Source: an uncultured delta proteobacterium
GTDB lineage: Bacteria > Desulfobacterota > Binatia > Binatales > Binataceae
Direction of reading: 5' to 3'
Assembly (NCBI GenBank): GCA_963842085.1
Contig: CAWJET010000001.1
Span: 672,001 to 736,000, forward strand
DNA length: 64,000 bases
Shown here in pieces: positions 21,806 to 41,346 of this stretch. Every line of letters begins with the position of its first letter. The stretch's first letter is position 1. Made by a program: the position numbers and the translations under genes. The notes beneath the pieces were generated by a model that was given only the letters and a program-made list of their open reading frames with translations, searched no databases and was not told the origin of the DNA.

Positions 21806-24377
<2,572 letters not shown>

Positions 24378-24392
24378 CGGAGGAGCCGGATC

Positions 24393-24812
24393 ATGAGAAT
24401 TACACAGGGAGCGTTCTCGTTCCTTCCCGATTTCACGGAAGACGAAGTCCGCGCGCAGCTCGAGTATTGCCTGCGCAACGGATGGGCAATAAACATCGAG
24501 TACACGGACGATCCGCATCCGCGCAACAGCTACTGGGAGTTGTGGGGACAGCCGATGTTCGATCAGAAGGATGCGGCCGCCGTGCTGGCTGAACTGGATG
24601 AGTGCCGCAAGGTACACCCGAACCATTACATAAAGATTAACGCCTTCGACTCGTCCAAGGGGCGCGAGTCGATTGCGCTCTCCTTCATTGTCAACCGGCC
24701 CCGCAAGGAGCCTGGCTTCGTTCTGGTCCGGCAGGAGGGGACAGGCCGCACAGTCCGCTATACTATTCGCAGCTACGCCACCGACCGGCCCGAAGGCGAA
24801 CGATACGATTGA
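24393..24812 (+). CDS. cbbS: RuBisCO small subunit, red-type
   Basis: [19 protein letters not shown], red-type C-terminal extension. Confidence 0.97.
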
Positions 24813-24821
24813 TGACGGCGT

Positions 24822-25799
24822 GTGCAAGAGCAGAAGCGACAATTGACCGCCACAACTGACGACAAGTCGGCAGCCGAGGATAAGCCTGCCACCCTGACGG
24901 CGCGGCCCAACTTGGAAGCGCCGGTAAACCTGGGCGAGGCGATGCGCGACGCCCGCGTGACCGAGGTGCTGGACCGTCTCGACCGGGAATTGGTCGGCTT
25001 GAAGCCCGTCAAGGCCCGGGTCCGGGAGATCGCCGCGCTTCTGCTCGTCGAGCGTGTGCGCGCAAGCGCCGGCCTGACCTCGACTCCGCCGAGCCTGCAC
25101 ATGTCGTTTACCGGCAATCCCGGCACCGGCAAGACGACGGTTGCGATGAGAATGGCCGAGATTCTGCATCGCCTCGGCTTCGTGCGCAAAGGACACGTCG
25201 TGGCGGTGACGCGCGATGATCTCGTCGGCCAGTACATCGGGCATACCGCGCCCAAGACCAAGGAAGTGCTCAAGCGCGCCATGGGCGGAGTGCTGTTCAT
25301 CGACGAGGCGTACTATCTCTACCGGGCCGAGAACGAGCGCGACTACGGCCAGGAAGCGATAGGAATCCTGATGCAGGTGATGGAGAATCAGCGCGAGGAT
25401 TTGGTGGTCATCCTGGCGGGTTACCGGGATCGCATGGATGCTTTCTTTCGCAGCAACCCCGGCCTCTCGTCACGCATCGCGCACCACATCGACTTTCCCG
25501 ATTACACGGCCGACGAACTAATGGAGATTGCGCAAATAATGCTGGCCGAGCAGAACTACCGGTTCAGCGAGGCGGGCGAGGCGGCATTTCGCCAGTATAT
25601 CACCAAGCGCATGACCCAGCCGCAATTTGCCAACGCGCGCAGCGTCCGCAACGCGCTCGACCGCGCTCGGCTGCGGCAGGCCACGAGGCTGCTTTCGCTT
25701 CCGGACAGCAAGCTGACGCTCAAGGATCTCATGACCATCGAAGCCGAGGAAATCCTGGCAAGCCGGGTCATGGCCGTGCCTGACACACCCATCACCTGA
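24822..25799 (+). CDS. cbbX: CbbX AAA+ RuBisCO activase
   Basis: [39 protein letters not shown]. Confidence 0.96.
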
Positions 25800-25946: not shown

Positions 25947-26846
25947 CTACGGTTCGGCGCGGAACACTCCCATCGCGCCGTTGTACTCATGCACCCGATT
26001 TAGATCCATGAATCGATACTCGCCCGGCTCGCTCACTTTGAACTCGAACACCGCGCCGGTGCTTGGGCCAACTGCGAAGTTGTCAGTCCCGTGAATCTGG
26101 TTGGCTGGATTTCCGCCGAAATAGACACTGCTGAATATGGCGCCGGCAACGTGAAACGTGGAGGTCAGGCTCGGACCGGCATTGACGAAGAATACTCGTA
26201 CCAACCTTCCCACTTTGATCAAAATCGGGTGCTCGGCGCCAGCTTTATTCAGCTGGCCATTGAACACTACAAAGGTTGGGCGTGCCTGCAGCATCGCGGT
26301 GAAGTCGGGAATAATCCGTCCGTTAGCGCGAGGTGTGCCGTAAAACTCACTCTGAACGAGGGTCATTTCCTGCGCCGGGCCCGATGGCCATCCATCTTTA
26401 GGATCCACGATAACAGCTCCATACATTCCGCGGCCGATGTGATCCAAAATAGGAATTCCGTTGCAGTGGTAGACAAAGACACCCGGCACGTCCGCACGAA
26501 ACTTATACCGCAGCGGAGCTTTGGTATTACCGCCGAAGTGCTCCGAAGAAATTTGAGCCGCAGGGATATTAAGGCCATGCGCGTCCCCCGTTTGGTTGAG
26601 TAATTCGACGTTGACCTCGTCGCCCTCGCGAAGCCTCAGTTCCGGTCCCGGAATGATACCGTCGAAGGTCCAGGCGTCGTAGGTCATTCCGTCTCCGATA
26701 TCGATACCTTTCTTTTCGACCGTCACGGTGAAGGTCTTGGTCGGTGCCTGAGCCCAAGCCGGCCCCCACACCATGGCAAAGACCATCGCGATCGCACCCA
26801 AGATCACGTTTCTTATGTCGCGGCCGGCGACCGAGTCTGCGTCCAT
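25947..26846 (-). CDS. Two-domain NirK-like cupredoxin/multicopper protein with degenerate type-2 Cu site
   Basis: WTFDGIIPGP, YHC...H...GMYG, VFNG, NAGP, FHVAG; signal peptide; two T2Cu histidines absent. Confidence 0.85.
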   Translation of the reverse strand: MDADSVAGRDIRNVILGAIAMVFAMVWGPAWAQAPTKTFTVTVEKKGIDIGDGMTYDAWTFDGIIPGPELRLREGDEVNVELLNQTGDAHGLNIPAAQISSEHFGGNTKAPLRYKFRADVPGVFVYHCNGIPILDHIGRGMYGAVIVDPKDGWPSGPAQEMTLVQSEFYGTPRANGRIIPDFTAMLQARPTFVVFNGQLNKAGAEHPILIKVGRLVRVFFVNAGPSLTSTFHVAGAIFSSVYFGGNPANQIHGTDNFAVGPSTGAVFEFKVSEPGEYRFMDLNRVHEYNGAMGVFRAEP

Positions 26847-26875
26847 ACCTTTGCTTCCCTTGCGAATCGCTGTGC

Positions 26876-27874
26876 TCACTTCGTCTTGCAGAAGTGCCTG
26901 ACGTATGCGCGCAGGCTGCGGATCTGGTCGTCGGTCAGCGCTTCTCCCCATGACGGCATGTCATTGCTGCGGCCGACCGAAGCACTGCCGCCCTTGATCT
27001 CATGGAACACGAAGTCGTCCGAGTCCCTCGCCATAATCTTGCAGTCGTGGAAGTTGCGCGGGTGGGTGGCAAGTGACAAGCCGTCAGGCCCGTCACCAAA
27101 ACCCTGCGGGCCATGACATCGCGAGCAGGTCTCTACAAACATCTCCTCGGTGGGGATGGTCTCTTCTGCGGCTGCACCTGGTGCGCTCTCGACCGCCCCG
27201 GCGGTGGGCTTGGGCAAGTTCTGGTTACTCCATTGCTGATAGTCCGCAGGCGTCAGAACTTTCAGGATACCTTTCATCGCGAAGTGCGAGATTCCGCAAA
27301 GCTGGGAGCACCCGATTTCATAGGTGCCCGGACGCGTTACCTCGAACCACGTGGGAATCTCCCGGCCGGGGAGGACGTCCTGTCTAAGGCGCAACTGCGG
27401 CACGTAAAAACTGTGGATCACGTCCTTCGACGTCATGAGCAAGCGGACTACCTGACCCGCGGGAACGATCAAAGTCGTAGTTTGGACCAGGTTGTGCGGG
27501 CCGAACTTGCCGTCGGGACCCGGATAAATGAACTCCCATCCGAACTGGAACGCCTCCAACTTTACCGTTAGCCCCGGAGCCGGACTTTGCTCCTTGACCA
27601 GATCCCAGACCGGCTTTGCCCGAACGTCGATCACGACGTCAAGGAAGGCGACAACGACGACCGGGACCAGCACCCATGCCAACTCGCGCAGTGACTTGCC
27701 GGGCACAAAGGCCGCTCGTCCACCCGCTCGACGACGGTACAAGATGAGGAACGCCAGAAGCGTACCCTCGGCCAGGATGAACGCCGTACCGACGATGTAG
27801 ATGACCAGCTTGATTACCGAGTCGATGCTCGGCCCGAACGTCGAAACGTCCGGTGGGAGCCACCCAAGGATCAT
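26876..27874 (-). CDS. coxB: Cytochrome c oxidase subunit II fused to a C-terminal cytochrome c (second copy)
   Basis: Two TM helices, DVIHSF, CSQLCGISHFAM CuA motif, CSRCH heme with distal DMP methionine. Confidence 0.92.
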   Translation of the reverse strand: MILGWLPPDVSTFGPSIDSVIKLVIYIVGTAFILAEGTLLAFLILYRRRAGGRAAFVPGKSLRELAWVLVPVVVVAFLDVVIDVRAKPVWDLVKEQSPAPGLTVKLEAFQFGWEFIYPGPDGKFGPHNLVQTTTLIVPAGQVVRLLMTSKDVIHSFYVPQLRLRQDVLPGREIPTWFEVTRPGTYEIGCSQLCGISHFAMKGILKVLTPADYQQWSNQNLPKPTAGAVESAPGAAAEETIPTEEMFVETCSRCHGPQGFGDGPDGLSLATHPRNFHDCKIMARDSDDFVFHEIKGGSASVGRSNDMPSWGEALTDDQIRSLRAYVRHFCKTK

Positions 27875-27978
27875 TTGAGCTCACCCCCGTCCAGCGTCAC
27901 ATGAAAGTCGGGGGAGCGGTGTTACAGTCGCTCCATACCCCGGACATTGAGCCCAGACCTCACTCTTAGCCCGAGCGC

Positions 27979-28683
27979 TTAGCCCTTCGGCTTCATTGAG
28001 AAATTGGCGGTCGCCGTCGCGCCGTCTTTCACGTCAACTTTCTGATTCTCCGTGCCAAGCTTCTCCTGCCACACTTCCACCGTATAGTCACCCGGCGGCA
28101 CATCCTTGATCTCGTAGTTGCCCTTGTCGTCGGTCACCGCGAAGTACGGGGTGTCGGTCGCGACCCACCACCCGCGCATCCAGCTATGCGCATCGCAGGT
28201 GACCTTGATCACTTCGGGCTGATCGATCTTATGCTTGATCTCTTTCTTGAACTTGGGCTGAGCCGTGTTGAACGACGGATTCGCGGTCGAATAGGTGTGG
28301 ATGTTGTGCAGAATCCCGTCTGAGTTGATGATGTCCACGGTGCTGCCGGCCGGGAACGCGAGCACGTGTGGCACGTAGTCGCATCCCTTCTGGTCGAACT
28401 TCACTTCGGCGGGCTTCAGCTCGCCCTTGGCGCCTTTCACGACCACCACTGCGTTCGCGATTCCGCCGCTGGGATCAACGATCAAATCCTCGGTGAAGTG
28501 CGGATGGAGACCGCAGACGTCCTTATCCTTGGTCACCTCGACCGGCTTGCGTGCGGGCGGCGTGCCGTCGTACTTGACGATTCCGCTGATCGTGCCGCCG
28601 GCGGCGCTCACGAGGCTGGCGCTAACGCTGAGGCTGAGCGCGATTCCCGCACACGCCGCCAGTACAAGTGGAAGCTTTTTCAT
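27979..28683 (-). CDS. Exported cupredoxin-like / carboxypeptidase-regulatory-like domain protein
   Basis: Signal peptide; DQKGC.Y.PHV, HNIH, CDAHSWM (His/Cys/His/Met T1Cu-like set). Confidence 0.8.
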   Translation of the reverse strand: MKKLPLVLAACAGIALSLSVSASLVSAAGGTISGIVKYDGTPPARKPVEVTKDKDVCGLHPHFTEDLIVDPSGGIANAVVVVKGAKGELKPAEVKFDQKGCDYVPHVLAFPAGSTVDIINSDGILHNIHTYSTANPSFNTAQPKFKKEIKHKIDQPEVIKVTCDAHSWMRGWWVATDTPYFAVTDDKGNYEIKDVPPGDYTVEVWQEKLGTENQKVDVKDGATATANFSMKPKG

Positions 28684-28724
28684 TAGCACTCCTCCTGCGA
28701 AATCATTCGTATTTCTCACGTCGC

Positions 28725-29423
28725 CTAGATCTTCGGATCGGTGTGCGCGAGCAGCTCGCGCATCTCGCGCATAATCCTGCCATAGTCGGGCTTGCCGAAG
28801 ATTCCCGAGCCTGAGACGAACACGTTGGCGCCGGCAGCCTTGACGTCCGCGATATTGTCGAGCTTCACGCCGCCGTCGATCTCGACGTCGAGACTGAGTC
28901 CGCGCCGCTTCAACTCGCGCCGGACGTAGCGCAACTTGTCCAGCGCGGCCGGGATAAACTCCTGGCCGCCGAATCCCGGGTGCACGCTCATCACAAGGAT
29001 CATGTCGAGATGCTCGGCAAAGGGCAGCACGCGGCCGGCGTCGGTCTCGGGATTGATTCCCACTGACGCGCGTGCGCCGAGGTCATGGATTCGCTTGGCC
29101 ATCGCGGGAATGTCGGGGCAGACCTCGCAATGCACCGAAATTGAATTGGCGCCCGCCTTCACAAAGGCTTCGACGTAGCGCGCCGGCTCGGAGATCATCA
29201 GGTGCGCGTCGAGCGGAAGTTTCGTAATCTTGCGGACCGCTCCCAGCACCGGAATTCCAATCGAGAGGTTGGGCACGAAGTGCCCGTCCATCACGTCGAA
29301 ATGAATCAAGTCAGCGCCCGCCTGCTCGACCGCGCGAATTTCCTCGCCCAGCCGCGCGAAGTCAGCGGACAGTATCGACGGCGCGAGTCTGTCAACAGGA
29401 TCCGCGTTGGAGGACTTGTTCAT
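28725..29423 (-). CDS. rpe: Ribulose-phosphate 3-epimerase
   Basis: APSILSADF, HFDVMDGHFVPN, DAHLMI, MSVHPGFGGQ, EIDGG. Confidence 0.97.
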   Translation of the reverse strand: MNKSSNADPVDRLAPSILSADFARLGEEIRAVEQAGADLIHFDVMDGHFVPNLSIGIPVLGAVRKITKLPLDAHLMISEPARYVEAFVKAGANSISVHCEVCPDIPAMAKRIHDLGARASVGINPETDAGRVLPFAEHLDMILVMSVHPGFGGQEFIPAALDKLRYVRRELKRRGLSLDVEIDGGVKLDNIADVKAAGANVFVSGSGIFGKPDYGRIMREMRELLAHTDPKI

Positions 29424-29493
29424 CGGCTTTTGATCGCGTCAGGCTACTCTTTCGCTGCCTGACTGCTTCAACTGCGGCTACCAGGCGCGCGGA

Positions 29494-30489
29494 TCAGACC
29501 TTGTCGAGCACCATCGCCAGCAGCACCACCGGCAGGTACGCAAGCGAAACCTTCATGACTCGCTGCGCCGCGGCGGCACTGGTGGAACCTCCCAGCACGA
29601 GTTGCAGGCAACGAAATAGCAACACCGCTCCAAGTACAACGGCGACCGGCACGTAAAGGAGTCCGGCAAACCTCATCAGGGCCGGCATCAGACCAACCAG
29701 GAGCAACGCCAAGGCCGCCGCTACAGTCAGTAAATTGGCGGGGTCGCCATAGCGGCCCCGCTCCGGCAGCATGTGGATACCTGCGCGCGCATAGTCGCGT
29801 CGATAGAGGCGCGCGATCGAGAGCGAATGCGGCAACTGCCACAGGAACATGATGGCGAAAAGTATCAGCGGCTCGCCGCCCAGGCCGTTGCGCGCCGCCG
29901 CCCAGCCGATCACCGGCGGCAGAGCGCCGGGAACCGCGCCAATGACGTGGCAGAGCCAGGTGACTCGCTTCATCGGGGTGTATGCACCCAGATAAAGCGC
30001 CGCGATGGCGCCGGTAACCATTGCGCTCAGCGGATTGACTTTCAACCAAAGATATAAAATCCCGGCGAGCGCGGTAACCACGCCGAACATCAGCGCGTCG
30101 ATCGGCCGCAACCGGCCTGAAGGCAGCGGCCGATGGCGCGTCCGCTCCATCCGGGCGTCCGTGTCGCGCTCGGCGTATTCGTTCAGCGCCAGCGTTCCGC
30201 CGGCCGCCAATGCGGTGCCGATCACCAGGTTAAGCGCCAGCACGAACCCGAACTGCTCGCCGCTTCCCATGTAGAAGCCCGCGAGCGTGGTGATAAGCAC
30301 CATCGTGAGCACGCGCGGCTTGGCCAATTCGAAATAGGCGGCTGCGTACTCGCTCACCGACGGCGCGGCACACAGTGCCACCTCTTCCACCGTCGCGGCT
30401 TTCAGGTTCAGGCGCTGAGAGGGCGTTATAGTTCCCGCCCCCTCAGTGAGCGATGCCAATCGTTCCGACGCTGGAAGGTTCTGGAACAC
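29494..30489 (-). CDS. cyoE: Protoheme IX farnesyltransferase (heme o synthase)
   Basis: LAKPR, ERDTDARMERTRHRPLPSG, YTPMKR, GALPPVIGW, DYARAG; start uncertain. Confidence 0.94.
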   Translation of the reverse strand: MFQNLPASERLASLTEGAGTITPSQRLNLKAATVEEVALCAAPSVSEYAAAYFELAKPRVLTMVLITTLAGFYMGSGEQFGFVLALNLVIGTALAAGGTLALNEYAERDTDARMERTRHRPLPSGRLRPIDALMFGVVTALAGILYLWLKVNPLSAMVTGAIAALYLGAYTPMKRVTWLCHVIGAVPGALPPVIGWAAARNGLGGEPLILFAIMFLWQLPHSLSIARLYRRDYARAGIHMLPERGRYGDPANLLTVAAALALLLVGLMPALMRFAGLLYVPVAVVLGAVLLFRCLQLVLGGSTSAAAAQRVMKVSLAYLPVVLLAMVLDKV

Positions 30490-30493
30490 GCCG

Positions 30494-30811
30494 TTAACGC
30501 GCCGTCTTCAGATACTCCAATATTGCATCCTCATCGTGCGGCGGCAGGTTCTCCATCGTGCGCATATGCATGATGATTTGATCCCACTGGTACGGAGCGA
30601 ACTCGGCGGGATTTCGAGCGTTGTGACAGTGGTTGCAATAGATTGGCCACAACGCCTGGCCCTCGTGGAACAGCTCAAGATGCCGCTTTTGCTGTTCCGG
30701 AGTGGGCCCCGTCGGGCCTGCAGCCTGCGCGCCCACCGCAGCAGCCAGCAGCACGAGCGACATCATTCCGGCCTTGGCAATCAGTGATTTCATCGTCGTC
30801 GGCCTCTTCAA
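30494..30811 (-). CDS. Small exported monoheme cytochrome c
   Basis: Signal peptide; CNHCH; W...HMR distal ligand region. Confidence 0.85.
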   Translation of the reverse strand: MKRPTTMKSLIAKAGMMSLVLLAAAVGAQAAGPTGPTPEQQKRHLELFHEGQALWPIYCNHCHNARNPAEFAPYQWDQIIMHMRTMENLPPHDEDAILEYLKTAR

Positions 30812-30814
30812 GGT

Positions 30815-32407
30815 TCAGAAACCAATTGATAGCTGCGTCATCACCGCGACATCGTTCGCCGTTGCGTTGATGCCGGTCGCGGTCGGGGTGGAGGCCGATC
30901 CTACGAAGTTGTAGAGCGTCCCGCCCCTTTCCGGAAGCTCCCAGTCAACCTCGGACTGCCAGACAATCGATGGCGCTATCCAGTAGTCGAGCGCCAGGGC
31001 GACCTCGCGCGCGTGCGGGCTATAGACGGAGGGCGATCCGTTGAAAGTGAAAATCGGTACGGGGCTGATGTCGTTCGCCAGAATGGCACGTTGATTCACG
31101 CCCGAGTAGCGCACCAGGAATTCAGTCTTGTCGAACCTCTGCTCCAGAAAGTCTCCAAGGTAGGGATGCGGAATGCCATAGAGGAAGTAACCGAACATCG
31201 CATACCAGCCCTCCCGGTTCTCATGCCCGCAGCAACCGGGATACATAGCCGCTCCCGTAAGCGAGGGCATTTGACGGTAGGTCTGCGCCCACTCGCCTCG
31301 GGTGCGGAACGGTCCGACGCGATAGGCGTAGCCCACGTCCCAGGCGTTGTACCAGAGCCCGTCGAGCCACTTGCCATTGTAGGTTGACGCCATCAGTTCA
31401 AGCCGTCCCCAATCCGCGCTGATGGGTATCGGGAACAGCCTGAAGCGCGCACCGAAACCCTTGCCATTCGTCGCAATGTTAGTACCGGTGAGCGGATTGA
31501 GTGCCTCACCGATTACCGGGTTGGGAATCGCATCCACGCCGGGCGACGATTCGAAACTCGGCCCGGAATCAATCCATACAGTGTAGTCAACGTCCTGCCC
31601 CATCTTTCCCCACTGGATACCGCCGCGCGCCTGCAGTCCCATAGCCGAGGGGGGAGCGATCGATTCAGCACCGAACATCAGCGGCGCCGTTATGAAAGGA
31701 TTGATCCAGCTGGGGCTCTGGTCCTCGAACCAGTCTCCTAAGGGCGTGTCGAACACCCCGACGAGCAGTTCCAGAGGAAACTCCTGTCCAGCCGGAAAGA
31801 TCTGAAGATTGGCGAGGCTTGGACCCACGTCGGAAATTCCACCCGGTTGGAGGGTAGCGCCGATGCTGCCGTAGAACTGGATCCAGTCATTAAGCCTGAG
31901 CATCGGGTTAACTTCGAAGTCAAGCACCGGTTGATTCATCGCGGCTTCGCGGTCGAAGTAGAAGCCGGCAGAGACGCCACCAACCATCGTGAAGGTATGT
32001 TGGCCGAGAAAGGCGTTTATGCGGTCGCCAAAACCGAGCGGCCCGAGCTGGGAATAGATGGTCTTCTGAATCTGGCCGACCTGCTTCTCAGTTTGAGCGT
32101 TAGTAGTCTGGAAACTAGTCTGCAGAGCGGTCTGGTTTTGCTGGAGATGCTGATTCGACTCCTGGAGTTCCCTGACTGCATCCTCGAGTTTCTCGATATG
32201 TTTGCGTTCGGCGTCAATTTCCTCGAGCAGACGCCGGTACTCAGTCGCTTTTTTCGATCTCGCGCTCGGCGGATCATCCGCCGTGCTTGGCTTCGAGATA
32301 GACGATTCATCCGCGCGCACGCTTCGTGGCGGCAACAGCATCAGCATCACCGCGATCGAAGCCAGTGTCCCCACGATCACCAGATGACTCACGCGCCTCA
32401 TACTCAT
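30815..32407 (-). CDS. Putative outer-membrane porin with N-terminal coiled coil
   Basis: Signal peptide, coiled coil, then aromatic/Gly-rich amphipathic strands, terminal Phe (LSIGF); no CxxCH. Confidence 0.75.
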   Translation of the reverse strand: MSMRRVSHLVIVGTLASIAVMLMLLPPRSVRADESSISKPSTADDPPSARSKKATEYRRLLEEIDAERKHIEKLEDAVRELQESNQHLQQNQTALQTSFQTTNAQTEKQVGQIQKTIYSQLGPLGFGDRINAFLGQHTFTMVGGVSAGFYFDREAAMNQPVLDFEVNPMLRLNDWIQFYGSIGATLQPGGISDVGPSLANLQIFPAGQEFPLELLVGVFDTPLGDWFEDQSPSWINPFITAPLMFGAESIAPPSAMGLQARGGIQWGKMGQDVDYTVWIDSGPSFESSPGVDAIPNPVIGEALNPLTGTNIATNGKGFGARFRLFPIPISADWGRLELMASTYNGKWLDGLWYNAWDVGYAYRVGPFRTRGEWAQTYRQMPSLTGAAMYPGCCGHENREGWYAMFGYFLYGIPHPYLGDFLEQRFDKTEFLVRYSGVNQRAILANDISPVPIFTFNGSPSVYSPHAREVALALDYWIAPSIVWQSEVDWELPERGGTLYNFVGSASTPTATGINATANDVAVMTQLSIGF

Positions 32408-32496
32408 CCTCCCCAGGCTTGCGCCTGAAAAATATGCCAGCAGCGACGAATCGCGTTACCGCCACCGATCCCCATCGGCAGCAGTCGCGGTCCTAG

Positions 32497-32615
32497 CAGG
32501 TTGCGGAAAAACTCAATGAAAGACGATTTCGGCGAAGAGTAAGCATTACTACGATCACGAGAATGCGTCTTGGATCAATGTCATCAGGAGTCAAAAACCC
32601 TTTTTCCGCAACCTG
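32497..32615. mobile_element. MITE (119 bp), IS5/IS1182-like ends
   Basis: Perfect 15-bp terminal inverted repeats CAGGTTGCGGAAAAA / TTTTTCCGCAACCTG, flanked on both sides by CTAG. Confidence 0.85.
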
Positions 32616-32623
32616 CTAGTGCC

Positions 32624-33013
32624 TCATTGCGCTACATCGATTTCGCCCTTCATTCCTTCCTTCACGTGCGTCGTGCAGAAGTACTTGTAAGTCCCGGGAA
32701 CCTTGAACGTGTAGCTGAAGTCTTCGCCCCCGTTCAGGTAACCGGAGTCCCACGTCTCCGCCCCCGCCGGCACCGATGCCCAGCTTGCGTCCGGCGCCTG
32801 GGACGGATCGCTGGTCGCGGTGTGGATGGTTTCGCCCTTGTTCACCCACTTTATAGTATCGCCGACTTTGACCTTCACCGGGTCGGGAACGAATTTCGCC
32901 GGCGTGTCGAACATCTTTACCTCCACGGTTTCCGCGAATGCCGGCATCGCGAGACCCAGCGACAACACACATGCGACCAGCAATCCCCTGCCAAGTAGCT
33001 GCATCTTTTTCAT
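32624..33013 (-). CDS. Plastocyanin/azurin-family blue copper protein
   Basis: Signal peptide; HTAT and YFCTTHVKEGMKG T1Cu ligands. Confidence 0.92.
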   Translation of the reverse strand: MKKMQLLGRGLLVACVLSLGLAMPAFAETVEVKMFDTPAKFVPDPVKVKVGDTIKWVNKGETIHTATSDPSQAPDASWASVPAGAETWDSGYLNGGEDFSYTFKVPGTYKYFCTTHVKEGMKGEIDVAQ

Positions 33014-33348
33014 ATTTTCCTCCAGCGCATCCAGGTTCCATTTGTGTTACCGCTGTTTGTGACAACTAAAGGCTCACCAGGACTCTCGATCGAGCCCGCT
33101 GTTTCCAAATACAGGCTCGTATCCGTTAGTTCTGATTTCTCGGAATAGGCGTGGAACGCGTATAGCGTTATTGCCCCGATAATTCCCCAAGCGAGGGCTA
33201 TCATGAAAAAAGCGCTCACCAGATAAGCGTGCAGGACGCCCGGTCCCGATGACCCAAAGCATAGCGGGCATGCATAGGCCGCAGGAGTGCAGACGAGCAC
33301 CGCCGAGATCGCAAGGGCGGCTGACTTAACTGAAGTAGACCAGCGCAT
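33010..33348 (-). CDS. Small membrane protein with CxxC after the signal peptide
   Basis: AYA-CPLC-FG followed by one TM helix; overlaps both neighbours in the operon. Confidence 0.6.
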   Translation of the reverse strand: MRWSTSVKSAALAISAVLVCTPAAYACPLCFGSSGPGVLHAYLVSAFFMIALAWGIIGAITLYAFHAYSEKSELTDTSLYLETAGSIESPGEPLVVTNSGNTNGTWMRWRKI

Positions 33349-33961
33349 AAATTACAGGCCAGAGAATCACCACGAATGACCAATACACCGAACACGCAAC
33401 CACACCGCGGAAGTCCACGTCGTATCGTCCTCGCCAGACCCGCTTCGCCACGAACGCGAGCACTGCCACCGCCACCACAAGATGTAGCGCGTGGGCGCCA
33501 ACGATCAGATAGAACATTCCGCCGTATACACTCGATGTCATCGTCAGCCCGAACCGAATTAGATGCGCCCATTCGCTGCCCTGAATGGCAAGGAACAGGG
33601 TGCCAAGCGCGAATGTTGCTCCCATCCACCGCATCGCGCCTGCCTTGTTGTGCTGGCGCAGGGCGCGCACCACGTTCCACATCGTCAGCCCGCTCAGGAC
33701 GAGAAGGCTGGTGTTGAATCCGGTCACGGCGAGCGGAAGGCGCGGTTGGTTCGCCGGCGGCCAAAATGGCGCTGACGCGCGCGAGACGAGAAATGCGCTG
33801 ATCAGACCCGCGAAGAGCATTACCTCGGAGCCTACGAATATCAGCACACCGAGCGTCGGATCGACGCCCTTTGGCGACCCCGCAGGACCCGACCTGCCGC
33901 CGCCGAACGCGGTGCCGCGTTTTAGAGTAGAAACCGTTCGAAGCGGAGTTGCCGCAGCCAA
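33326..33961 (-). CDS. coxC: Cytochrome c oxidase subunit III family protein (second)
   Basis: SEVMLFAGLISAF, NTSLLVLS, GAHALH, YWSFV. Confidence 0.88.
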   Translation of the reverse strand: MAAATPLRTVSTLKRGTAFGGGRSGPAGSPKGVDPTLGVLIFVGSEVMLFAGLISAFLVSRASAPFWPPANQPRLPLAVTGFNTSLLVLSGLTMWNVVRALRQHNKAGAMRWMGATFALGTLFLAIQGSEWAHLIRFGLTMTSSVYGGMFYLIVGAHALHLVVAVAVLAFVAKRVWRGRYDVDFRGVVACSVYWSFVVILWPVIYALVYFS

Positions 33962-33977
33962 GCGCTGACTCCTTATC

Positions 33978-34268
33978 CTACGGATGCATCGCGACGTCCG
34001 GAATGAACACCAAGGCCATCACAATCACCAGCGCCACCGGAAGCAGCGCCAGGGTATAAATCAGTACGTCTTCCGAGCGCAGGCGCATATAGTATCGTCC
34101 AATGACGTAGACCTGCGCTGCCGCCGCGGCAAATATGACCCACAGCGCCAGGCTTCGTGGCAGGCCCCGTGCCACGGTCAGGGCGCCCACCAGCAAAAGA
34201 ACAACCAGCAGTATCCAGGTTCTCAAAGAGTCCGAAGCATTGAATTCGGCTTGTTCCATCGGCGACAC
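33978..34268 (-). CDS. Cytochrome c oxidase subunit IV family protein
   Basis: Three TM helices, YYMRLRSE motif; lies between the two subunit III genes. Confidence 0.75.
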   Translation of the reverse strand: MSPMEQAEFNASDSLRTWILLVVLLLVGALTVARGLPRSLALWVIFAAAAAQVYVIGRYYMRLRSEDVLIYTLALLPVALVIVMALVFIPDVAMHP

Positions 34269-34883
34269 CTATCCGGCGGTGGGCGCCAAATACACCAGGG
34301 CAAAAAGCAGCACCCACACCGTCTCGACGAAATACCAATACAGGCACACGTATTTGAGCTTGCGCTCCAACCAACCGGCCGGAGTGCTGGGGCTCACCAT
34401 CAACATCAGTCCGAAGATCACCACGACTCCGGCCAGCAGATGAAGTACATGCAGCCCGGTCATCACATAGTAGAAGCTCCAGAAGAGCGCAGCGAGCGGA
34501 GTAAACCCTTCGCGAAAATCGCCGGCGTATTCGAAGGCCTTGATCACCAGGAAGAGCGTGCCCAGCAGCACAGTGGCGCTCAGGTAACGCTTCACTCGCG
34601 CCGAATCCTGGACGCGCGCGGCGCCTTGCGCGAGCGCGGCGGTCAGGCTGCTCGCAAACAGAACGAAGGTGTTGATCGCCCCCAGCCGCCAGTTGACGTG
34701 CGCGCCGGCGGCTCCCCATCCGCCATGGGAGACCCCCATCAGAATAAAGACACCCATGAGCCCGCCGAAGAGCATTGTTTCGCCGGCGAAGAACACCCAC
34801 ATTCCGAGCTTGCCGATCTCAAAACTGGTCGGTACCTCGTGCGCCGCATGTGCGATCCCGATTTCGGCTGCTGAGTTTGCCAT
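34269..34883 (-). CDS. coxC: Cytochrome c oxidase subunit III family protein
   Basis: KLGMWVFFAGETMLFGG, NTFVLFASS, TGLHVLH, LYWYFVE. Confidence 0.9.
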   Translation of the reverse strand: MANSAAEIGIAHAAHEVPTSFEIGKLGMWVFFAGETMLFGGLMGVFILMGVSHGGWGAAGAHVNWRLGAINTFVLFASSLTAALAQGAARVQDSARVKRYLSATVLLGTLFLVIKAFEYAGDFREGFTPLAALFWSFYYVMTGLHVLHLLAGVVVIFGLMLMVSPSTPAGWLERKLKYVCLYWYFVETVWVLLFALVYLAPTAG

Positions 34884-34893
34884 AAGTTTGCGC

Positions 34894-36600
34894 TCACCCC
34901 TGCGCGGCGCCTGCCTCCACCGCTGCGGCTTGCGGAACCCAATCCTGTTTCATCCCGGGCACACTGTACTCGTATGGCCCGCACACGACTGTCGGTATGG
35001 TGTGGAAGTTCTCATGCGGCGGCGGCGAATCGGTGGCCCATTCAAGCGTGGTGGCATTCCAAGGATTCGCAGGAGCCTTCGCGCCACGGAACATGCTCAT
35101 GAAAAAGTTCAGCAGGAACGGGACCTGCCCAGCTATTATGATGAGCAGCCCGATCGTTGCGATCACGTGGAGCGGCTGAAGCGGCTTGTAGTAGTGGTAA
35201 ACGGACGACAAATAGATTCGGCGCTGTCCGCCGCCCAACCCGATCAAGAACAGCGGAATAAATACCGTGTTGAAACCGATCCAGGTGAAAGCGAAGTGGA
35301 TCCTTCCCAGGGTCTCATTCATCATCCGGCCGAACATCTTCGGGAACCAGAAGTAGATCCCGCCAAATCCCGCGATAACGGCGGTCGGCACGAGCGTGTT
35401 GTGGAAATGCGCGATTACAAAATAGGTGTCGTGCAGGTAGATATCCGACGCATCCGTCCCCAGCGGAATGCCGGTTACCCCGCCCAGCAGGAAATTAGCC
35501 AGGGCGCCCAGCGCAAACAGCATCGCCGTGGTGTACGTGATCTGGCCGCGCCATAGCGTCGCGATCATCGCAAACAGCATCACCGCGAACGGAATGGAAA
35601 TCGCGATCGTGGTCGCGCTGAAAGGCTCTGCCAGCGTCGGGTTCATCCCGCTCACGAACATGTGGTGAGCCCACACCGTGAAGCTCAGGATTCCGGCTGC
35701 AATCACCGACCACACAATCATGCGATAGCCAAAAATCGGCTTGCGGCTGAATACCGGGAGGATCTCCATCACGATGCCGAGCCCCGGTACCGCCACGACA
35801 TACACCTCGGGATGGCCGAAGAACCAGAACAGGTGCTGCCATAGCAGCGGGTCGGCTCCTTTTTCCGGCAGGAAGAAGCCCGTGCCCACCATCCGATCGA
35901 GCAACAACATCACCACGCCGGCGATGAGCGGGCCCACACTCAGCATGAACATCACGCTCGCTACCAGTTCTGCCCACACCAGCAGCGGCATTCGCCAGAT
36001 CGTCATCCCGGGAGCGCGCATCGCGATCGCGGTGGTGAGGAAGTTGATGCCGCCCATCAGGACCGAAGCGAAATCGATCGCCACGGCGAGCAGCCAAAGG
36101 TTTCCGCCCCAGTAATTTCCGGGCAGGAACTTTGCCCCGTCCGACAGCGGAACGTAGTTCGTCCAGCCCGCGCGCGACGCGCCGCCCGGGACGAAAAACG
36201 AAAGCAGCAAGAGGACCGAAGCGACGAAAATAGTCCAGTACGAGGCCATGTTGAGCCGCGGGAACGCCATGTCGCGCGCCCCGACCATCAGCGGGATCAG
36301 GAAATTGCCGAACGCGCCAAGCAGCACCGGCATCGCCACGAAGAAGACCATTGTGGTTCCGTGCATCGTGACGACTTCGTAATACTGCAGTGCACTTACT
36401 TTTCCCCAGAGCGGAACCGAGGTGCGGGGCCAGGCAAGCTGCCAGCGGAAGACGTACGACAAGAACACGCCCACAAACCCCATGAACAAGCCCAGAAACA
36501 GGTACTGCTTGCCGATCACCTTGTGATCGACAGAAAATACGTACTGCCACCAAAAGCTCATCTTCTCGTGAGCCTCGACGGACTGCGCCATCTCGCTCAT
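34894..36600 (-). CDS. coxA: Heme-copper oxidase subunit I, A-family (GHPEVY) with altered K-channel
   Basis: DHKVIG, MHG, DMAFPRLN, GHPEVY, WAHHMF, HDTYFVIAHFH, RR; all six His ligands present. Confidence 0.96.
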   Translation of the reverse strand: MSEMAQSVEAHEKMSFWWQYVFSVDHKVIGKQYLFLGLFMGFVGVFLSYVFRWQLAWPRTSVPLWGKVSALQYYEVVTMHGTTMVFFVAMPVLLGAFGNFLIPLMVGARDMAFPRLNMASYWTIFVASVLLLLSFFVPGGASRAGWTNYVPLSDGAKFLPGNYWGGNLWLLAVAIDFASVLMGGINFLTTAIAMRAPGMTIWRMPLLVWAELVASVMFMLSVGPLIAGVVMLLLDRMVGTGFFLPEKGADPLLWQHLFWFFGHPEVYVVAVPGLGIVMEILPVFSRKPIFGYRMIVWSVIAAGILSFTVWAHHMFVSGMNPTLAEPFSATTIAISIPFAVMLFAMIATLWRGQITYTTAMLFALGALANFLLGGVTGIPLGTDASDIYLHDTYFVIAHFHNTLVPTAVIAGFGGIYFWFPKMFGRMMNETLGRIHFAFTWIGFNTVFIPLFLIGLGGGQRRIYLSSVYHYYKPLQPLHVIATIGLLIIIAGQVPFLLNFFMSMFRGAKAPANPWNATTLEWATDSPPPHENFHTIPTVVCGPYEYSVPGMKQDWVPQAAAVEAGAAQG

Positions 36601-36603
36601 CGC

Positions 36604-37341
36604 CTATCCCTCCTTCCCGTTTGCCGGCGATCGCGCACCTGATGCGCTCTTGCCCGTGCCGGCGGCGGCGGACTTGGACCAATGCTGGTTAACCCATTGC
36701 TGATAGTCCTCGGGCGTCAGAACTTTCAGGATACCTTTCATCGCGAAGTGCGAGATCCCGCAAAGCTGGGAGCATCCGATTTCATATGTGCCGGGCTGCG
36801 TCGCCTCGAACCATGCGGGAATCTCCCGGCCCGGAAGGACGTCCTGTCTAAGACGCAACTGCGGTACGTAAAAACTGTGGATCACGTCCTTCGACGTCAT
36901 CAGCAAGCGGACCACCTGGCCCGTGGGAACGGTCAAAGTCGTTGTTTGGACCAGGTCGTCGTGCGTGCCGAACTGGCCGTCAGGACCCGGATACGTGAAC
37001 TCCCATCCGAACTGGAACGCATCCAACTTTACCGTCAGCCCCGGAGCCGGACTTTGCTCCTTAACCAGTTCCCAGACCGGCTTTGCCCGAACGTCGATCG
37101 CCACATCAAGGAAGATGACGACAATGACGGGGATCAGCACCCATGCGAGCTGGCGCAGCGAATCGCCACGCACAAAGAATGCGTGCTGGCCCTCGCGGCG
37201 ACGGTAGAAGATGACGAACGCCAAGAGCGTACCCTCGGCCAGGATGAGCGCCGTACCGACTATGGAGATGACGAGCCTGATCACCGAGTCAATGTTTGGC
37301 CCGAACGTCGAAATGTCTTGTGGAAGCCAGCCGAAGATCAT
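36604..37341 (-). CDS. coxB: Cytochrome c oxidase subunit II
   Basis: Two TM helices; DVIHSF and CSQLCGISHFAM CuA motif. Confidence 0.94.
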   Translation of the reverse strand: MIFGWLPQDISTFGPNIDSVIRLVISIVGTALILAEGTLLAFVIFYRRREGQHAFFVRGDSLRQLAWVLIPVIVVIFLDVAIDVRAKPVWELVKEQSPAPGLTVKLDAFQFGWEFTYPGPDGQFGTHDDLVQTTTLTVPTGQVVRLLMTSKDVIHSFYVPQLRLRQDVLPGREIPAWFEATQPGTYEIGCSQLCGISHFAMKGILKVLTPEDYQQWVNQHWSKSAAAGTGKSASGARSPANGKEG

Positions 37342-37346
37342 GATGT

Positions 37347-38129
37347 TTACTCAGCCTGCGGCAAGCCTTGTCGTTTCGCAGGGGCGACTCCAAGGCCTGA
37401 GCACTCTCCCAGCTTCTCGCCGCGAACGGTGTTGCTGGAGGGGATTCCGGTGGCCGGCGGATTGTCGTCGTGACAGTCCAGGTTGCCGCCGATGTAATTT
37501 TGCGAGATGAGCCCCGACGCGACGGGATAGCCCGGCACGGTTATCGATCCCGCATTATTGTGGAACTCCAGCTTCCCGCCCATCTGGACTGCCCGGTTGC
37601 AAGCACTTGGATCCCCAATTACCCAAGGTGAATCGGACGAGCTCCCTTGGATTTGAACATCTCCGCCGATCCAGACATAGCAGAGGAAATTCGTCTTAAG
37701 ATCGCCGGTAGGGGGCGAAGTCGGCGGGAAACTCGTGGTATGAGACGCGGTCACGTTCCCGCCAACCGTGCTGTCCCCATACAGCCCGAGATATTTGGCG
37801 TGATCGGCCGTCAGGTTTCCCCGGATGTGCACGGTGCCGGCGATGAGGCCGCCCTCGACGGTGACGTTCCCCGTTACCGTGGTTCCTGCGAGCGTGCAGG
37901 CTGCTCCCGCGGGAACGTCTACGTTGCCATCGACTGTGACCGCACCCATTGTGACCTTACCAAACGAGCCGGTGCATGAGGTCACGGGTGCGGCGTTGGC
38001 GGCCGTAGCCGACAAGCCAACGACCACTGCTAGGCCAACCGTGCTGACCAGGTAACCCATCAGCTTGAGCATCGAGTCGATGCTCGGACCGAGCGTTGAA
38101 ACGTCTTGTGAATGCCTGGCTAGGATCAT
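37347..38129 (-). CDS. Exported Gly/Thr/Val-rich hypothetical protein (beta-helix-like) with coxB-derived N-terminus
   Basis: GGAGG RBS; DVSTLGPSIDS leader; repeated (V/I)xGN(V/L) units; several Cys; 5-bp gap to coxB. Confidence 0.65.
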   Translation of the reverse strand: MILARHSQDVSTLGPSIDSMLKLMGYLVSTVGLAVVVGLSATAANAAPVTSCTGSFGKVTMGAVTVDGNVDVPAGAACTLAGTTVTGNVTVEGGLIAGTVHIRGNLTADHAKYLGLYGDSTVGGNVTASHTTSFPPTSPPTGDLKTNFLCYVWIGGDVQIQGSSSDSPWVIGDPSACNRAVQMGGKLEFHNNAGSITVPGYPVASGLISQNYIGGNLDCHDDNPPATGIPSSNTVRGEKLGECSGLGVAPAKRQGLPQAE

Positions 38130-38832
38130 CGTCCTCCCCCGAACTGGATCCTGTGCGCGATCTGAACCGTGCGCTTTTGCCAAGAAGCAAACGCAGTGAT
38201 TGTTCAGATCGCCGGTGTCGCCTTCGTCGCTGAAGGCGCACCATACTTTTCGTTGCCTGCTCCTCCCCAAACCGAGCCACAAGGCAGACTGTCTACATTC
38301 GTGGCCAGTCTGCCAGGCAGGTCCTCGGTATATTGATCGATACTCGGCCCGCAGGTCGAAACGTCAGGCAACAGCCACCCGACCTTACAGATCCTCCCAT
38401 GCGGTAAATTTTGTTCGAACGGTTCTTTGCGGGACTGACGGGCAACTTCGAACATGCTCAACTCGTTCGCTGGTTTATGCAACTTCGTGTTTACGCATCT
38501 CGATAAAGCGCTTATACGCGCTTCCAAATAAAAAAGTCAAGCTGGATCAGACTAGAGCCAACACACTTTTTGCAGGCAGCTCCATTTCCCTCGGCATCGA
38601 GGAATCAGCACGGTAGATAAATTCTAGAATCACCCAAGACAAGAATGGCTGCTTGCTCTATCGCTGATGCCGCGAGCCCCGCGCGACAAGCCCGCTTCTC
38701 CAGCCCCCCGACGCCCCAGAAAATCCGCGGCTATGCCGGCTATCTCTAGTTTTGTTCCGCAGAGGCCGCGATAAATGATAAATGGACGACTGTGTGGCAA
38801 GGCTAAGCCGTTCGGCATCTGGCCCGAGACGC

Positions 38833-41265
38833 TCACTGGATGCCCTCCTGGAAGATGGTATCGCCGCTCTCTTCGTCTTTCCCGACCTGTGCGGGCGGCG
38901 GCGTCACCGCGATCGTCACCTTATCGATCATGCCGGTGAATTTGTTGTCGCCTTCTTTGTAGTCCTCGGTCACCGGCGTCGCGAGGTCTTCGCCAACGTC
39001 CTCGGTCTCATCGGCGGAAAAGACGAACGGGACGGTATTCTCGATTCGGCCCTCGGCCACCTTTTCCTCATTCACGTAGAGACGCCCGGTCCCTCCCTTA
39101 CCGACGCCTCCGCCGTCGTAAACGAATTCAAATCGCAGCGTGGCCGTGCCTGCCGGAACACGGTTGGGCGACTCAATCGTGTAGCGCTCCTTATTAAACC
39201 AGTTGTAGCAGTACTTGAGTTTGCCTTCCTTCATGTACAGGCTCCAGCCGGCGAACCTGCCGCCTTGGGCGAGAATCACGCCCTCCGCGCCGTCCTTAGG
39301 TATCTCGACCTGGGCGATGATGGTGTGTGAGCGATTCTTTATGTCGAGTGTCGCGTTTTCCATCATCGCGACCATTCCGGGATACAGTGTCAGCGACGTG
39401 CGGTCGCCCATTAATGATGGCCGGCCCGCCAACGCCGGAACCGCGCGTTCCGCCGCGCGGTCATCCAGCGGCAAGGCGTCGTATTTCTCAGCCTGGGCAA
39501 GGAAGAGTTGCTGAAGCTCCTTCAGCTTACCTGGGTATTTCGCCGCGAGGTCCTGCGACTGGCTGAAGTCGTCGTTGGTATTGTAGAGCTCCCATTTATC
39601 TTCGGTGAATTTCGGCAGCTTGACCATTCCGGTTTCCCACGGCGTCCGATGTTTCGTGACCGCGGTCCAGCCGTTCGAATAGATGCCGCGATTCCCGAAC
39701 ATCTCAAAGTATTGCGTGGTGTGCCGGGTTGGGGCCGCGGCGCTGGCGAAGGTGTAAACCATGCTCACGCCTTCCATCGGCTTCTGCTTGATGCCGTCGA
39801 CCGTTTTCGGCTGCGGGAGCTTCGCCGCCTCGAGGATGGTCGGCGTAATATCGATCACGTGATGCCACTGGGTTCTGATGCCGCCCGCATCCCTGATGCG
39901 CGCCGGCCATGAGATGACCATACCGTTGCGCGTGCCGCCGTAGTGTGAAGCGACCTGCTTGGTCCATTGGAAGGGTGTGTCGCCCGCCAGAGCCCATCCT
40001 ACCGGGATATGTGGAAACGTCATGGGGCCGCCTATCTCGTCGAGTTGCTTGACCACGTTCTCCGTCGTGTCAGAAACCCCATTAAGTGTCGCGATCTCAT
40101 TGAGCGTGCCCGTGAGGCCACCCTCAGCGCTCATCCCGTTGTCCCCGGCGATATAAATCACGATGGTGTTGTCAGATTCTCCGATATCTTTGAGACTGTC
40201 GAGCAGTCTGCCAACTTCGTGGTCAGTGTATTCACCAAATCCGGCATAGTTCTCCATCAGGCGAGCCGCGACGCGCTTCTCGTCGGTGCTGAGCTCATCC
40301 CAGTGCTTGACGCCTGGCGCCCACGGAGCGAGCTGGGTTGTATGGGGCACAACCCCCAACTGCTTCTGTCGCGCGAGTGTCGCCTCCCGGTACTTGTCCC
40401 AGCCCTCATCGAATCTGCCCCGGTACTTGTCGCGCCATTCCTTCGGGGTGTGGTGCGGCGCATGAAGCGCGCCGGGCGCGAAATAGACGAAAAAGGGCTT
40501 ATCGGGCGTCATCGTATGCTGAAAACGCATCCAAGCGATCGCATGGTCGGTCATATCGGTCATGAAGTTGTAGCCAGGCGTGTGTGCCGGCTCAACGACC
40601 GTTGTGCCGTCGTAGATCAATGGCGCCCACTGGTTCGTCTCACCGCCAAGGAATCCGTAGAACTTCTCGAAACCGTCGCCGATCGGCCACTGTGTGAATG
40701 GTCCTGAGACGCTGACCTCCCACGCCGGGGTCTGGTGCATCTTGCCGAAGGCCGCCGTATTGTACCCATTCATTTTAAGAATCTGGGCGATCGTGGCGGC
40801 CTCATTCGGCCTGATCGACGAGTAGCCTGGCGCGCTGGTCGCGAGTTCAGTGATCGCTCCCATGCCCACCGAGTGATGGTTGCGCCCGGTGAGTAGCGCC
40901 TGGCGGGTCGGCGAGCAAAGGGCCGCTGTATGAAACTGCGTGTAGCGCAGCCCGCTTTTCGCGAGTGAATCCAGCGTGGGCATGTTGATGCCGCCGCCGA
41001 AGGTGCTCGGCGCACCGAAGCCAATATCATCGAGCAGAATTACGACTACGTTGGGCGCACCCGCGGGCGGCCGCAGTGGCTCGATCGGCGGAAACTTCGC
41101 GTCGCGCGCATCCAGCGGAATTTTGCCGGGATACTTGTAGTGCATGTCCGGTATCGGCAATTGAGTGCGATCGATTTGTTGAGCGTAGGCGGGAAGCACC
41201 CTCGCTGCGATGCCCAGACACAGACTAACTCCGAGAACCAGAACCAGTTTTTTCATCTTTGCCAT
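38833..41265 (-). CDS. Exported arylsulfatase
   Basis: PNVVVILLDD, CSPTRQALLTGR formylglycine motif, GKMH, HAPHH, GDNG. Confidence 0.95.
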   Translation of the reverse strand: MAKMKKLVLVLGVSLCLGIAARVLPAYAQQIDRTQLPIPDMHYKYPGKIPLDARDAKFPPIEPLRPPAGAPNVVVILLDDIGFGAPSTFGGGINMPTLDSLAKSGLRYTQFHTAALCSPTRQALLTGRNHHSVGMGAITELATSAPGYSSIRPNEAATIAQILKMNGYNTAAFGKMHQTPAWEVSVSGPFTQWPIGDGFEKFYGFLGGETNQWAPLIYDGTTVVEPAHTPGYNFMTDMTDHAIAWMRFQHTMTPDKPFFVYFAPGALHAPHHTPKEWRDKYRGRFDEGWDKYREATLARQKQLGVVPHTTQLAPWAPGVKHWDELSTDEKRVAARLMENYAGFGEYTDHEVGRLLDSLKDIGESDNTIVIYIAGDNGMSAEGGLTGTLNEIATLNGVSDTTENVVKQLDEIGGPMTFPHIPVGWALAGDTPFQWTKQVASHYGGTRNGMVISWPARIRDAGGIRTQWHHVIDITPTILEAAKLPQPKTVDGIKQKPMEGVSMVYTFASAAAPTRHTTQYFEMFGNRGIYSNGWTAVTKHRTPWETGMVKLPKFTEDKWELYNTNDDFSQSQDLAAKYPGKLKELQQLFLAQAEKYDALPLDDRAAERAVPALAGRPSLMGDRTSLTLYPGMVAMMENATLDIKNRSHTIIAQVEIPKDGAEGVILAQGGRFAGWSLYMKEGKLKYCYNWFNKERYTIESPNRVPAGTATLRFEFVYDGGGVGKGGTGRLYVNEEKVAEGRIENTVPFVFSADETEDVGEDLATPVTEDYKEGDNKFTGMIDKVTIAVTPPPAQVGKDEESGDTIFQEGIQ

Positions 41266-41346
41266 CCGCTCCTCTAGCAGCAACCCAAACGAGAGACAGG
41301 CTCGTTCGCAGGTGCCGACGGTACACTACTCGTTGCCGAAACCTCG

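Follow-up and report, generated by a model that had tools for sequence, protein, structure and literature searches.

A two-gene porin and monohaem cytochrome pair in an oxidase operon of Binataceae as a possible Cyc2-like electron conduit

Our analysis of a 64,000-nucleotide (nt) stretch of the genome of an uncultured Binataceae bacterium (contig CAWJET010000001.1, positions 672,001 to 736,000; hereafter the window, with coordinates counted from its first letter) centred on an operon of 15 genes, all on the minus strand from 38129 to 25947, in which the genes for an outer-membrane porin and a small monohaem cytochrome c stand among those of a haem-copper oxidase. We read this operon, with a probability of about 0.45, as an A-type CuA oxidase that has its own electron-input branch, a split, one-haem porin-cytochrome conduit resembling Cyc2. 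A preliminary description, made from the letters alone, had listed 15 same-strand genes with an oxidase, a porin, a cytochrome c and copper proteins, and this inventory was confirmed by the open reading frames (ORFs) and their Pfam and NCBIfam matches. The ORFs overlap or are separated by short gaps; the only long gap in the run, 216 nt, precedes the porin.

The small cytochrome (30494..30811) has 105 residues, with a signal peptide, a mature part of about 75 amino acids and a single CxxCH motif, and its gene starts 3 nt after the stop of the porin gene (30815..32407). It is a divergent class I protein with no Pfam family, and in sequence searches of the Protein Data Bank (PDB) it matched class-I cytochromes around the haem motif only. 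When loci were fetched by the cytochrome alone (the best 80 of 130 relatives' loci, holding 82 small-cytochrome genes), every one of the 82 genes had a porin of the same family directly upstream, at a median gap of 17 nt. Porin followed by small cytochrome was also the order in 16/16 paralog loci from 15 Binataceae genomes, in 6/6 loci from other Binatia families, where the porins are only 31-34% identical, and in the seven soil-metagenome loci read, although these sets overlap in genomes and are kin, and do not form independent samples. The pair is kept down to about 25-30% porin identity. Porin and small cytochrome are an obligate pair, and the proposal that the unfused proteins form a functional pair rather than chance neighbours is supported by the 82/82 pairing. 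The oxidase-linked cytochromes are 57-89% identical to the window cytochrome and the paralog-linked ones 42-62%, with the porins in parallel; because of this parallel, the pair is, as judged from sequence identities, duplicated as a unit. A second carrier is adjacent in 78 of the 82 modules, either a class-I cytochrome c within 500 nt after the pair (67 modules) or a cupredoxin directly upstream of the porin (11 modules).

The porin has 530 residues and consists of a signal peptide, a helix or coiled coil at about residues 50-121 and a barrel. Its AlphaFold2 (AF2) model, built with 41 relatives, has a predicted local distance difference test (pLDDT) score of 81.6 and a predicted template modelling (pTM) score of 0.72, and the DSSP string of the model gives 16 transmembrane strands plus a hairpin in the last outer loop. 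A Foldseek search of the PDB matched the model to OmpU, Omp32, OmpK36, OprO, OprP and OmpM1 (E about 1e-12 to 1e-11), in agreement with the barrel suspected from the letters. No Pfam family matched the window porin itself; Porin_O_P (PF07396) was matched by 14 of the 41 relatives, and the family profile found OprO (3.1e-07) and OprP (3.3e-06) among PDB sequences. By these matches the protein is a distant member of the Porin_O_P superfamily, and Atlas look-ups returned Porin_O_P and class-I cytochrome only. The family is small, since an exhaustive HMMER search of 1.84 billion representatives yielded 246 porin relatives at E ≤ 0.001. As the preliminary description stated, the porin has no CxxCH; its sole two cysteines form a vicinal pair (392-393) within a GCCGH motif at residues 391-395. 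Screens for Cyc2 or MtoA based on CxxCH would miss such a porin, a claim that the translation supports.

Co-folding of porin residues 100-530 with cytochrome residues 31-105, each given as an alignment and modelled without haem, yielded an interaction prediction score from aligned errors (ipSAE) of 0.78 (runs 0.81, 0.75 and 0.78) vs 0.00 for the best of three controls. Among solved complexes, 116 of 157 reached the co-fold mark, as against 2 of 215 mismatched pairs; these counts hold roughly, since own alignments were used. The runs share at least 96% of their contacts and the partner pLDDT is at least 82. On the porin, contacts alternate as i, i+2 along eleven strands (1-10 and 14) and are joined by loop 3 (residues 225-235) and by turns on the N-terminal, periplasmic side. 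Since this alternation fits no other placement, the cytochrome is predicted to sit inside the periplasmic half of the porin lumen, which answers in the affirmative, at the level of a model, the earlier question of whether it plugs the barrel. The co-fold supports binding but does not show it.

The oxidase genes precede the pair. CoxB (36604..37341), the oxidase subunit II, has a CuA site but lacks a fused cytochrome (COX2 3.7e-16; CoxB TIGR02866 141 bits), and the CuA motif C-x3-C-x3-H-x2-M is present in its translation. CoxA (34894..36600) is subunit I of an A-family haem-copper oxidase (COX1 3.1e-137; CtaD_CoxA 599 bits, below the equivalog cut-off of 670.75); assignment to the A family rests on the COX1-family subunit I together with a subunit II that has the CuA ligands. 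CoxA is one of four strong paralogs in the host genome, and a gene for haem a synthase (CtaA) lies elsewhere in that genome, adjoining another of the coxA paralogs. Two subunit III paralogs (34269..34883, COX3 4.7e-12; 33326..33961, COX3 1.4e-22) flank subunit IV (33978..34268, COX4_pro 2.4e-08). Next come a small membrane protein (33010..33348) without a Pfam or NCBIfam family, which has a CxxC just after its signal or anchor segment and could be a candidate copper or thiol handling factor, and a plastocyanin-like cupredoxin with a signal peptide (32624..33013; Copper-bind 1.9e-13, Plastocyanin 9.1e-15). The gene after the pair encodes haem o synthase (CyoE/CtaB; 29494..30489; TIGR01473 244 bits, above the cut-off of 210).

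Conservation of this arrangement was examined in 165 Binataceae genomes, a set whose porin tallies include genomes flagged as unpublished (G079, G213, G282 and G338). Orthologs of the window porin at ≥59% identity were near-full in 11 genomes and in pieces in one more, and four further genomes had porin fragments only (60-68%); the carriers span at least six genera. Ten of the 12 ortholog loci read have the block coxB-coxA-coxC-IV-coxC'-CxxC-cupredoxin-porin-cytochrome unbroken, which is more than chance. One exception is cut by a contig end and the other (L017) has cupredoxin, porin and cytochrome followed by a hybrid histidine kinase. Haem o synthase follows the small cytochrome in 5/12 loci. 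The genes farther downstream in the window operon (rpe, gene 13, the second CoxB and the NirK-like gene) were not found beside the other ortholog loci, except for one 53%-identical NirK-like gene located upstream in L009, and rpe at this position was seen in the window genome only. Of the three type 1 copper (T1Cu) carriers initially proposed, the cupredoxin is conserved in the unit, whereas genes 13 and 15 were, apart from L009, not found near the other ortholog loci. The ortholog porin is in overlapping pieces at two loci, three pieces in L007 (10001-11613) and two in L014 (9157-10771); the split matches suggest frameshifts, either broken genes or assembly errors in metagenome-assembled genomes.

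The pair heads three kinds of redox unit that face the periplasm. A co-oriented flavoprotein-Rieske-cytochrome b complex is the neighbour in 49 of the 82 modules, the window-type oxidase in 10, a NirK-like protein, placed after a porin-cytochrome-cytochrome trio, in eight, and a second cytochrome only in 10, while five modules meet a contig end. The host genome (4.93 Mb, two contigs) contains both the oxidase-linked pair and, on the other contig, a porin paralog of 46% identity. This paralogous module (locus L003, G000:C2:25000-44999, at 9932-16870) has the commonest context in the class (49/82): after the trio of porin, small cytochrome and a 117-residue class-I cytochrome c come genes for a GltD-like FeS flavoprotein of the NAD(P) type, for a Rieske protein, and for cytochromes b and c. 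Both porin-cytochrome loci of the genome have a sulfatase gene within a few kb (38833-41283 in the window and 2134-3741 in L003, each on the minus strand), which may be coincidence.

In the mechanism that we propose, an OprO/OprP-like, 16-strand outer-membrane barrel would be plugged from the periplasmic side by the 75-residue monohaem cytochrome c. A small redox-active solute, Fe(II) being likeliest and Cu(I) or Mn(II) possible, would enter the barrel from outside and donate an electron to the haem. The electron would then pass to the plastocyanin-like cupredoxin, whose gene lies immediately upstream of that of the porin and whose place would be taken by a class-I cytochrome c in the paralogous modules, and from the cupredoxin to the CuA of CoxB and finally to O2. 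One haem cannot span the membrane, as in Cyc2, so that only a small solute able to enter the pore could be the partner; Cu(I) was kept as a candidate because of the Cys-His loop and the copper contexts of distant relatives. We infer that the haem can be reached from outside, which way the electrons flow and what donates them, as well as the parts played by the cupredoxin, the GCCGH motif, the CxxC protein and the coiled coil. Located below the barrel, this coiled coil probably holds the porin together as a trimer, and the second carrier may dock on it. The conserved GCCGH motif, restricted to the oxidase-linked clade and predicted to face outward, may be a metal site at the outer mouth.

A close known counterpart is Cyc2, the fused cytochrome-porin that oxidises Fe(II), for example of Acidithiobacillus ferrooxidans and Mariprofundus (Cyc2PV-1). 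A passage in Keffer et al. (2021, PMC8406198) assigns the Cyc2 porin to the OprO/OprP class, with the cytochrome at the N-terminus. Cyc2 and the window pair both combine one haem with a 16-strand OprO/OprP-like barrel, at or in which the haem part of Cyc2 lies and that of the window pair is predicted to lie, and in both cases genes for a terminal oxidase and for a cupredoxin or cytochrome accompany them. However, Cyc2 is a single fused polypeptide with an N-terminal CXXCH on a short haem segment, whereas here two genes are involved and the haem motif belongs to the one after the porin, which encodes a complete 75-residue class-I-like domain; the window porin also differs in its 70-residue periplasmic coiled coil. 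By analogy of architecture and fold class, the pair would work like Cyc2, yet it fails the fusion that defines Cyc2. A two-gene system of OprP-like porin and monohaem cytochrome was not found described in the literature searched, a search that had subscription journals and supplements outside its range.

The rus operon of A. ferrooxidans has the order cyc2-cyc1-orf-coxBACD-rus and couples Cyc2, a porin-cytochrome, with Cyc1, copper proteins and an aa3 oxidase. The preliminary description saw a possible analogue of it in the window operon. The resemblance is confined to the parts list, in that a single operon encodes a barrel-cytochrome of the outer membrane, a blue copper protein of the periplasm and an A-type oxidase, and two components of rus have no match. 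The window cupredoxin is not rusticyanin (TIGR03095 20 bits vs a cut-off of 146.7; the best match is plastocyanin), and no dihaem c4 Cyc1 is encoded in the operon, its only cytochromes being the monohaem proteins of genes 10 and 14. Moreover, gene order differs, the host belongs to a neutral-soil lineage, and the pair also heads Rieske/cytochrome b and NirK-like units.

Other systems share single features with the pair. OprO and OprP, porins that are selective for phosphate (PDB 4RJW and 2O4V; PF07396), resemble the window porin in fold and, distantly, in sequence, but the latter differs in its N-terminal coiled coil, its obligate cytochrome partner and its respiratory gene context. MtrAB, MtoAB and PioAB have adjacent genes, as the window pair does, and a cytochrome inserted in an outer-membrane barrel, as is predicted for it. 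A passage in He et al. (2017, PMC5566968) describes MtrAB-type complexes as a decahaem cytochrome in a barrel whose transmembrane regions number 24-32; the window pair has one haem and 16 strands, and the MtrB_PioB family matches a different gene of the window, at 25-2352. Attachment porins of the OmpM1/SlpA type have a comparable barrel with an N-terminal coiled-coil stalk, but no SLH (S-layer homology) domain was found in the window porin with Pfam and its partner is a cytochrome.

The likeness to Cyc2 is aided by the OprO/OprP class of the barrel and by natural fusions of cytochrome and porin within the porin family. Among 269 proteins examined, four bear CxxCH, all of them distant family members, and in these one or two class-I cytochrome c domains lie N-terminal to the barrel, connected through linkers and coiled coils. 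A 68%-identical relative of one fusion is encoded in a Legionella sp. genome (L121, 7995-11979); there, the fusion of dihaem cytochrome and porin has genes for a dihaem and a trihaem cytochrome c after it and one for an OprB-type porin before it. Relatives of another fusion are common in soil metagenomes (at least 424 confirmed matches), and the order in the seven metagenome loci read is class-I cytochrome, porin, small cytochrome. The small cytochrome of these loci is homologous to that of the window, with the invariant G, LW, CxxCHN, W and HMR positions in common. Some of the metagenome relatives (L193, 9720-10010; L181, 7603-7917; L123, 9604-9909) have a lipoprotein-like signal on the small cytochrome, with a cysteine after a lipobox-like stretch, vs an ordinary signal peptide in Binatia. 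The distant modules have different neighbours, in one setting a two-component system together with cupredoxin-FG-GAP and CarboxypepD_reg proteins, in another genes for cytochrome maturation along with an FtrD-like protein, and in a third CopA/CopB.

Further genes of the window count for a lithotrophic reading. At 25-3555 on the minus strand, directly downstream of the hyp genes, lies a pair of genes for an MtrB/PioB-type barrel (775 amino acids, PF11854 1.3e-76, 25-2352) and a decahaem MtrA/PioA-like cytochrome (389 amino acids, 10 CxxCH), and the host genome has a second MtrB/PioB copy. A NiFe hydrogenase cluster (3509-14767, minus strand) comprises small and large subunits, cytochrome b and a maturation protease, together with hypF, hypC, hypD, hypE, hypB and a gene of the crotonase fold. 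The Calvin-Benson-Bassham (CBB) operon (19799-25799, plus strand), which is convergent with the oxidase operon and ends 150 nt away from it, encodes a GlpX-type fructose-bisphosphatase, phosphoribulokinase, a class II aldolase, the large and small subunits of ribulose-1,5-bisphosphate carboxylase/oxygenase (RuBisCO) and a CbbX-like AAA protein.

Several observations nevertheless weigh against the conduit reading. A search around the other ortholog loci for CBB, hydrogenase and MtrAB genes yielded nothing except a 37% HypB-like match in L009; because the neighbourhood is not conserved, any 'lithoautotrophy island' would be particular to this genome. RuBisCO was found in 6/165 Binataceae genomes and in none of the 12 clear carriers other than this genome; it is present in one fragment carrier (G265) and was not found in the other 46 genomes of the host genus. 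MtrB/PioB, detected in 35/165 genomes (a tally that includes the unpublished G079, G213 and G333), is only slightly commoner in carriers (4/12) than in others (31/153). A porin family member at E ≤ 1e-20 is present in 115/165 Binataceae genomes, and in most Binataceae the pair stands beside the Rieske/cytochrome b complex; this near-universal placement would suit a general respiratory accessory no less than a donor-specific conduit. Structurally, the co-fold is a haem-free prediction and its interface shows only slightly stronger conservation than the remainder of the barrel (entropy 1.52 vs 1.78 bits, p 0.013), with no significant difference when the comparison is restricted to strands (p 0.20). 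To these may be added the Legionella relative of one fusion and the distant relatives that stand beside cytochrome-maturation or copper-resistance genes.

These points bear first on an explanation in which porin and cytochrome do bind each other, yet electrons do not pass through the outer membrane. Barrel and coiled coil would then merely tether periplasmic carriers near respiratory complexes, or the cytochrome would be a redox-sensitive plug that gates an anion porin, the pair being in either case a general respiratory accessory of Binatia. Such a role would suit the breadth of the family in Binataceae, the 49 modules beside the Rieske/cytochrome b complex and the lack of RuBisCO in most carriers, as well as the fusions, which tie class-I cytochromes to the periplasmic N-terminus by long linkers, and the presence of OmpM1, a stalked attachment porin, among the fold matches. 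However, a membrane or lipid anchor could tether carriers more simply, the co-fold locates the cytochrome within the lumen rather than on the stalk, and the architecture parallels that of Cyc2, and we regard this explanation as doubtful.

The GCCGH motif invites a different interpretation, that of a copper-handling unit in which the porin imports or exports copper for the assembly of CuA, CuB and T1Cu sites or for detoxification, the cytochrome alters the redox state of the metal and the CxxC protein acts as a chaperone. In the 41-row alignment, GCCGH is present in 13 of the 14 closest relatives (≥53% identity), with GCCGN in the remaining one, and is absent from the other 26. The motif is predicted to lie in extracellular loop 6, its outward orientation following from strand parity and the side of the co-fold contacts. 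Haem attachment at this motif was considered and rejected, as the histidine is not adjacent to the second cysteine in the manner of CXXCH. The copper interpretation also draws on the CxxC kept in 11/11 aligned orthologs of the small membrane protein, on an operon rich in copper proteins, and on two distant modules, one beside CopA/CopB and another beside the two-component system with the cupredoxin-FG-GAP protein. Yet most modules, namely those linked to Rieske/cytochrome b, have no copper protein nearby, a plugged lumen would be a poor transport path and no CopB/PcoB match was found with Pfam, and we consider copper handling unlikely as the function of the pair.

In an outward conduit, quinol electrons would travel by way of the Rieske/cytochrome b complex and cytochromes c into the plugged porin and on to an acceptor outside the cell, for instance Fe(III) chelates or humic substances, and the oxidase-linked copy would be a side branch. 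Such a conduit would agree with the 49 modules co-oriented with that complex and with the MtrB/PioB-type conduits of 35/165 family genomes. It accords poorly with the window pair, whose genes stand within an oxidase operon, with cupredoxin on one side and haem o synthase on the other; because the oxidase consumes electrons, inward flow is indicated for the window copy, and we judge the outward direction improbable. That an ordinary phosphate or anion porin entered the operon by chance, for which the relation of the family to OprO/OprP might speak, is close to refuted by the 82/82 pairing with the small cytochrome, and the conservation of the pair to about 25-30% porin identity and the co-fold tell against it as well.

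Of the remaining genes of the operon, gene 1 (37347..38129) encodes a secreted or membrane hypothetical protein of 260 amino acids, the first 30 residues of which copy the CoxB N-terminus, with a weak beta-helix (bactofilin-like) signal (Bactofilin E 0.0069, below the cut-off). Its presence agrees with the preliminary description, whereas its start had to be corrected to the ATG at 38129. A homolog of 84% identity was seen upstream of coxB in L007 only, among the 12 ortholog loci read. Ribulose-phosphate 3-epimerase (rpe, 28725..29423; TIGR01163 276 bits, above the cut-off) is followed by gene 13 (27979..28719), a secreted protein that had been described as a second cupredoxin-like protein; the N-terminal half does resemble amicyanin, although weakly (E 0.0011), and its clear domain is CarboxypepD_reg (3.7e-12). 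Gene 14 (26876..27874) is a second CoxB with a C-terminal class-I cytochrome c domain (COX2 and Cytochrome_CBB3; one CxxCH). Gene 15 (25947..26951), a NirK-like two-domain cupredoxin (TIGR02376 150 bits, below the cut-off of 296), has T1Cu ligands only: in the alignment with AniA these are kept, while two of the three type 2 (T2) histidines and the catalytic Asp are replaced. The T1Cu-only label given to it earlier is thus borne out, and a role as nitrite reductase was ruled out because of the lost T2 histidines and Asp. Scanning the operon for promoters and terminators was uninformative, with 0 promoter-like sites and 16 terminator-like sites vs 12.3 expected, all of them intragenic.

The two coxB genes are closely similar, with 85-90% nt identity along a stretch of about 690 nt, and the first 91 nt of coxB occur a third time at 38039-38129, where they form the start of gene 1. 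In sequence, the copies look like traces of repeated recombination at the operon head. Farther upstream, an ORF at 38204-38527 again has a stretch resembling the CoxB N-terminus.

A broader reading joins the two contexts found in the host genome. The pair would be a Binatia-wide outer-membrane electron gate, in which electrons from external Fe(II) or Mn(II) feed a downhill branch, through the cupredoxin to the oxidase, and an uphill branch to NAD(P)+ through the paralogous module of GltD-like flavoprotein, Rieske protein and cytochrome b, bifurcated like rus and petI of Acidithiobacillus and built from a split, one-haem analogue of Cyc2. We think it unlikely that this broader scheme holds as a whole; if it did, an abundant soil and peat lineage would be a hidden metal oxidiser that screens based on CxxCH have overlooked.

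The pair itself is small, one barrel and a 75-residue cytochrome, which makes it tractable for expression, structure and activity work, and it could help to explain electron transfer across the outer membrane by one haem within a barrel of 16 strands, a point still open for Cyc2. The known outer-membrane conduits fall into two classes, multihaem complexes of porin and cytochrome on the one hand and the fused, one-haem Cyc2 on the other, and surveys of iron oxidisers target those; a two-gene, one-haem conduit would escape them. The Binatia lineage has so far been read as methylotrophic or heterotrophic, and a conduit of this kind would add a class of candidate metal-oxidising or electron-exchanging bacteria of soil and peat.

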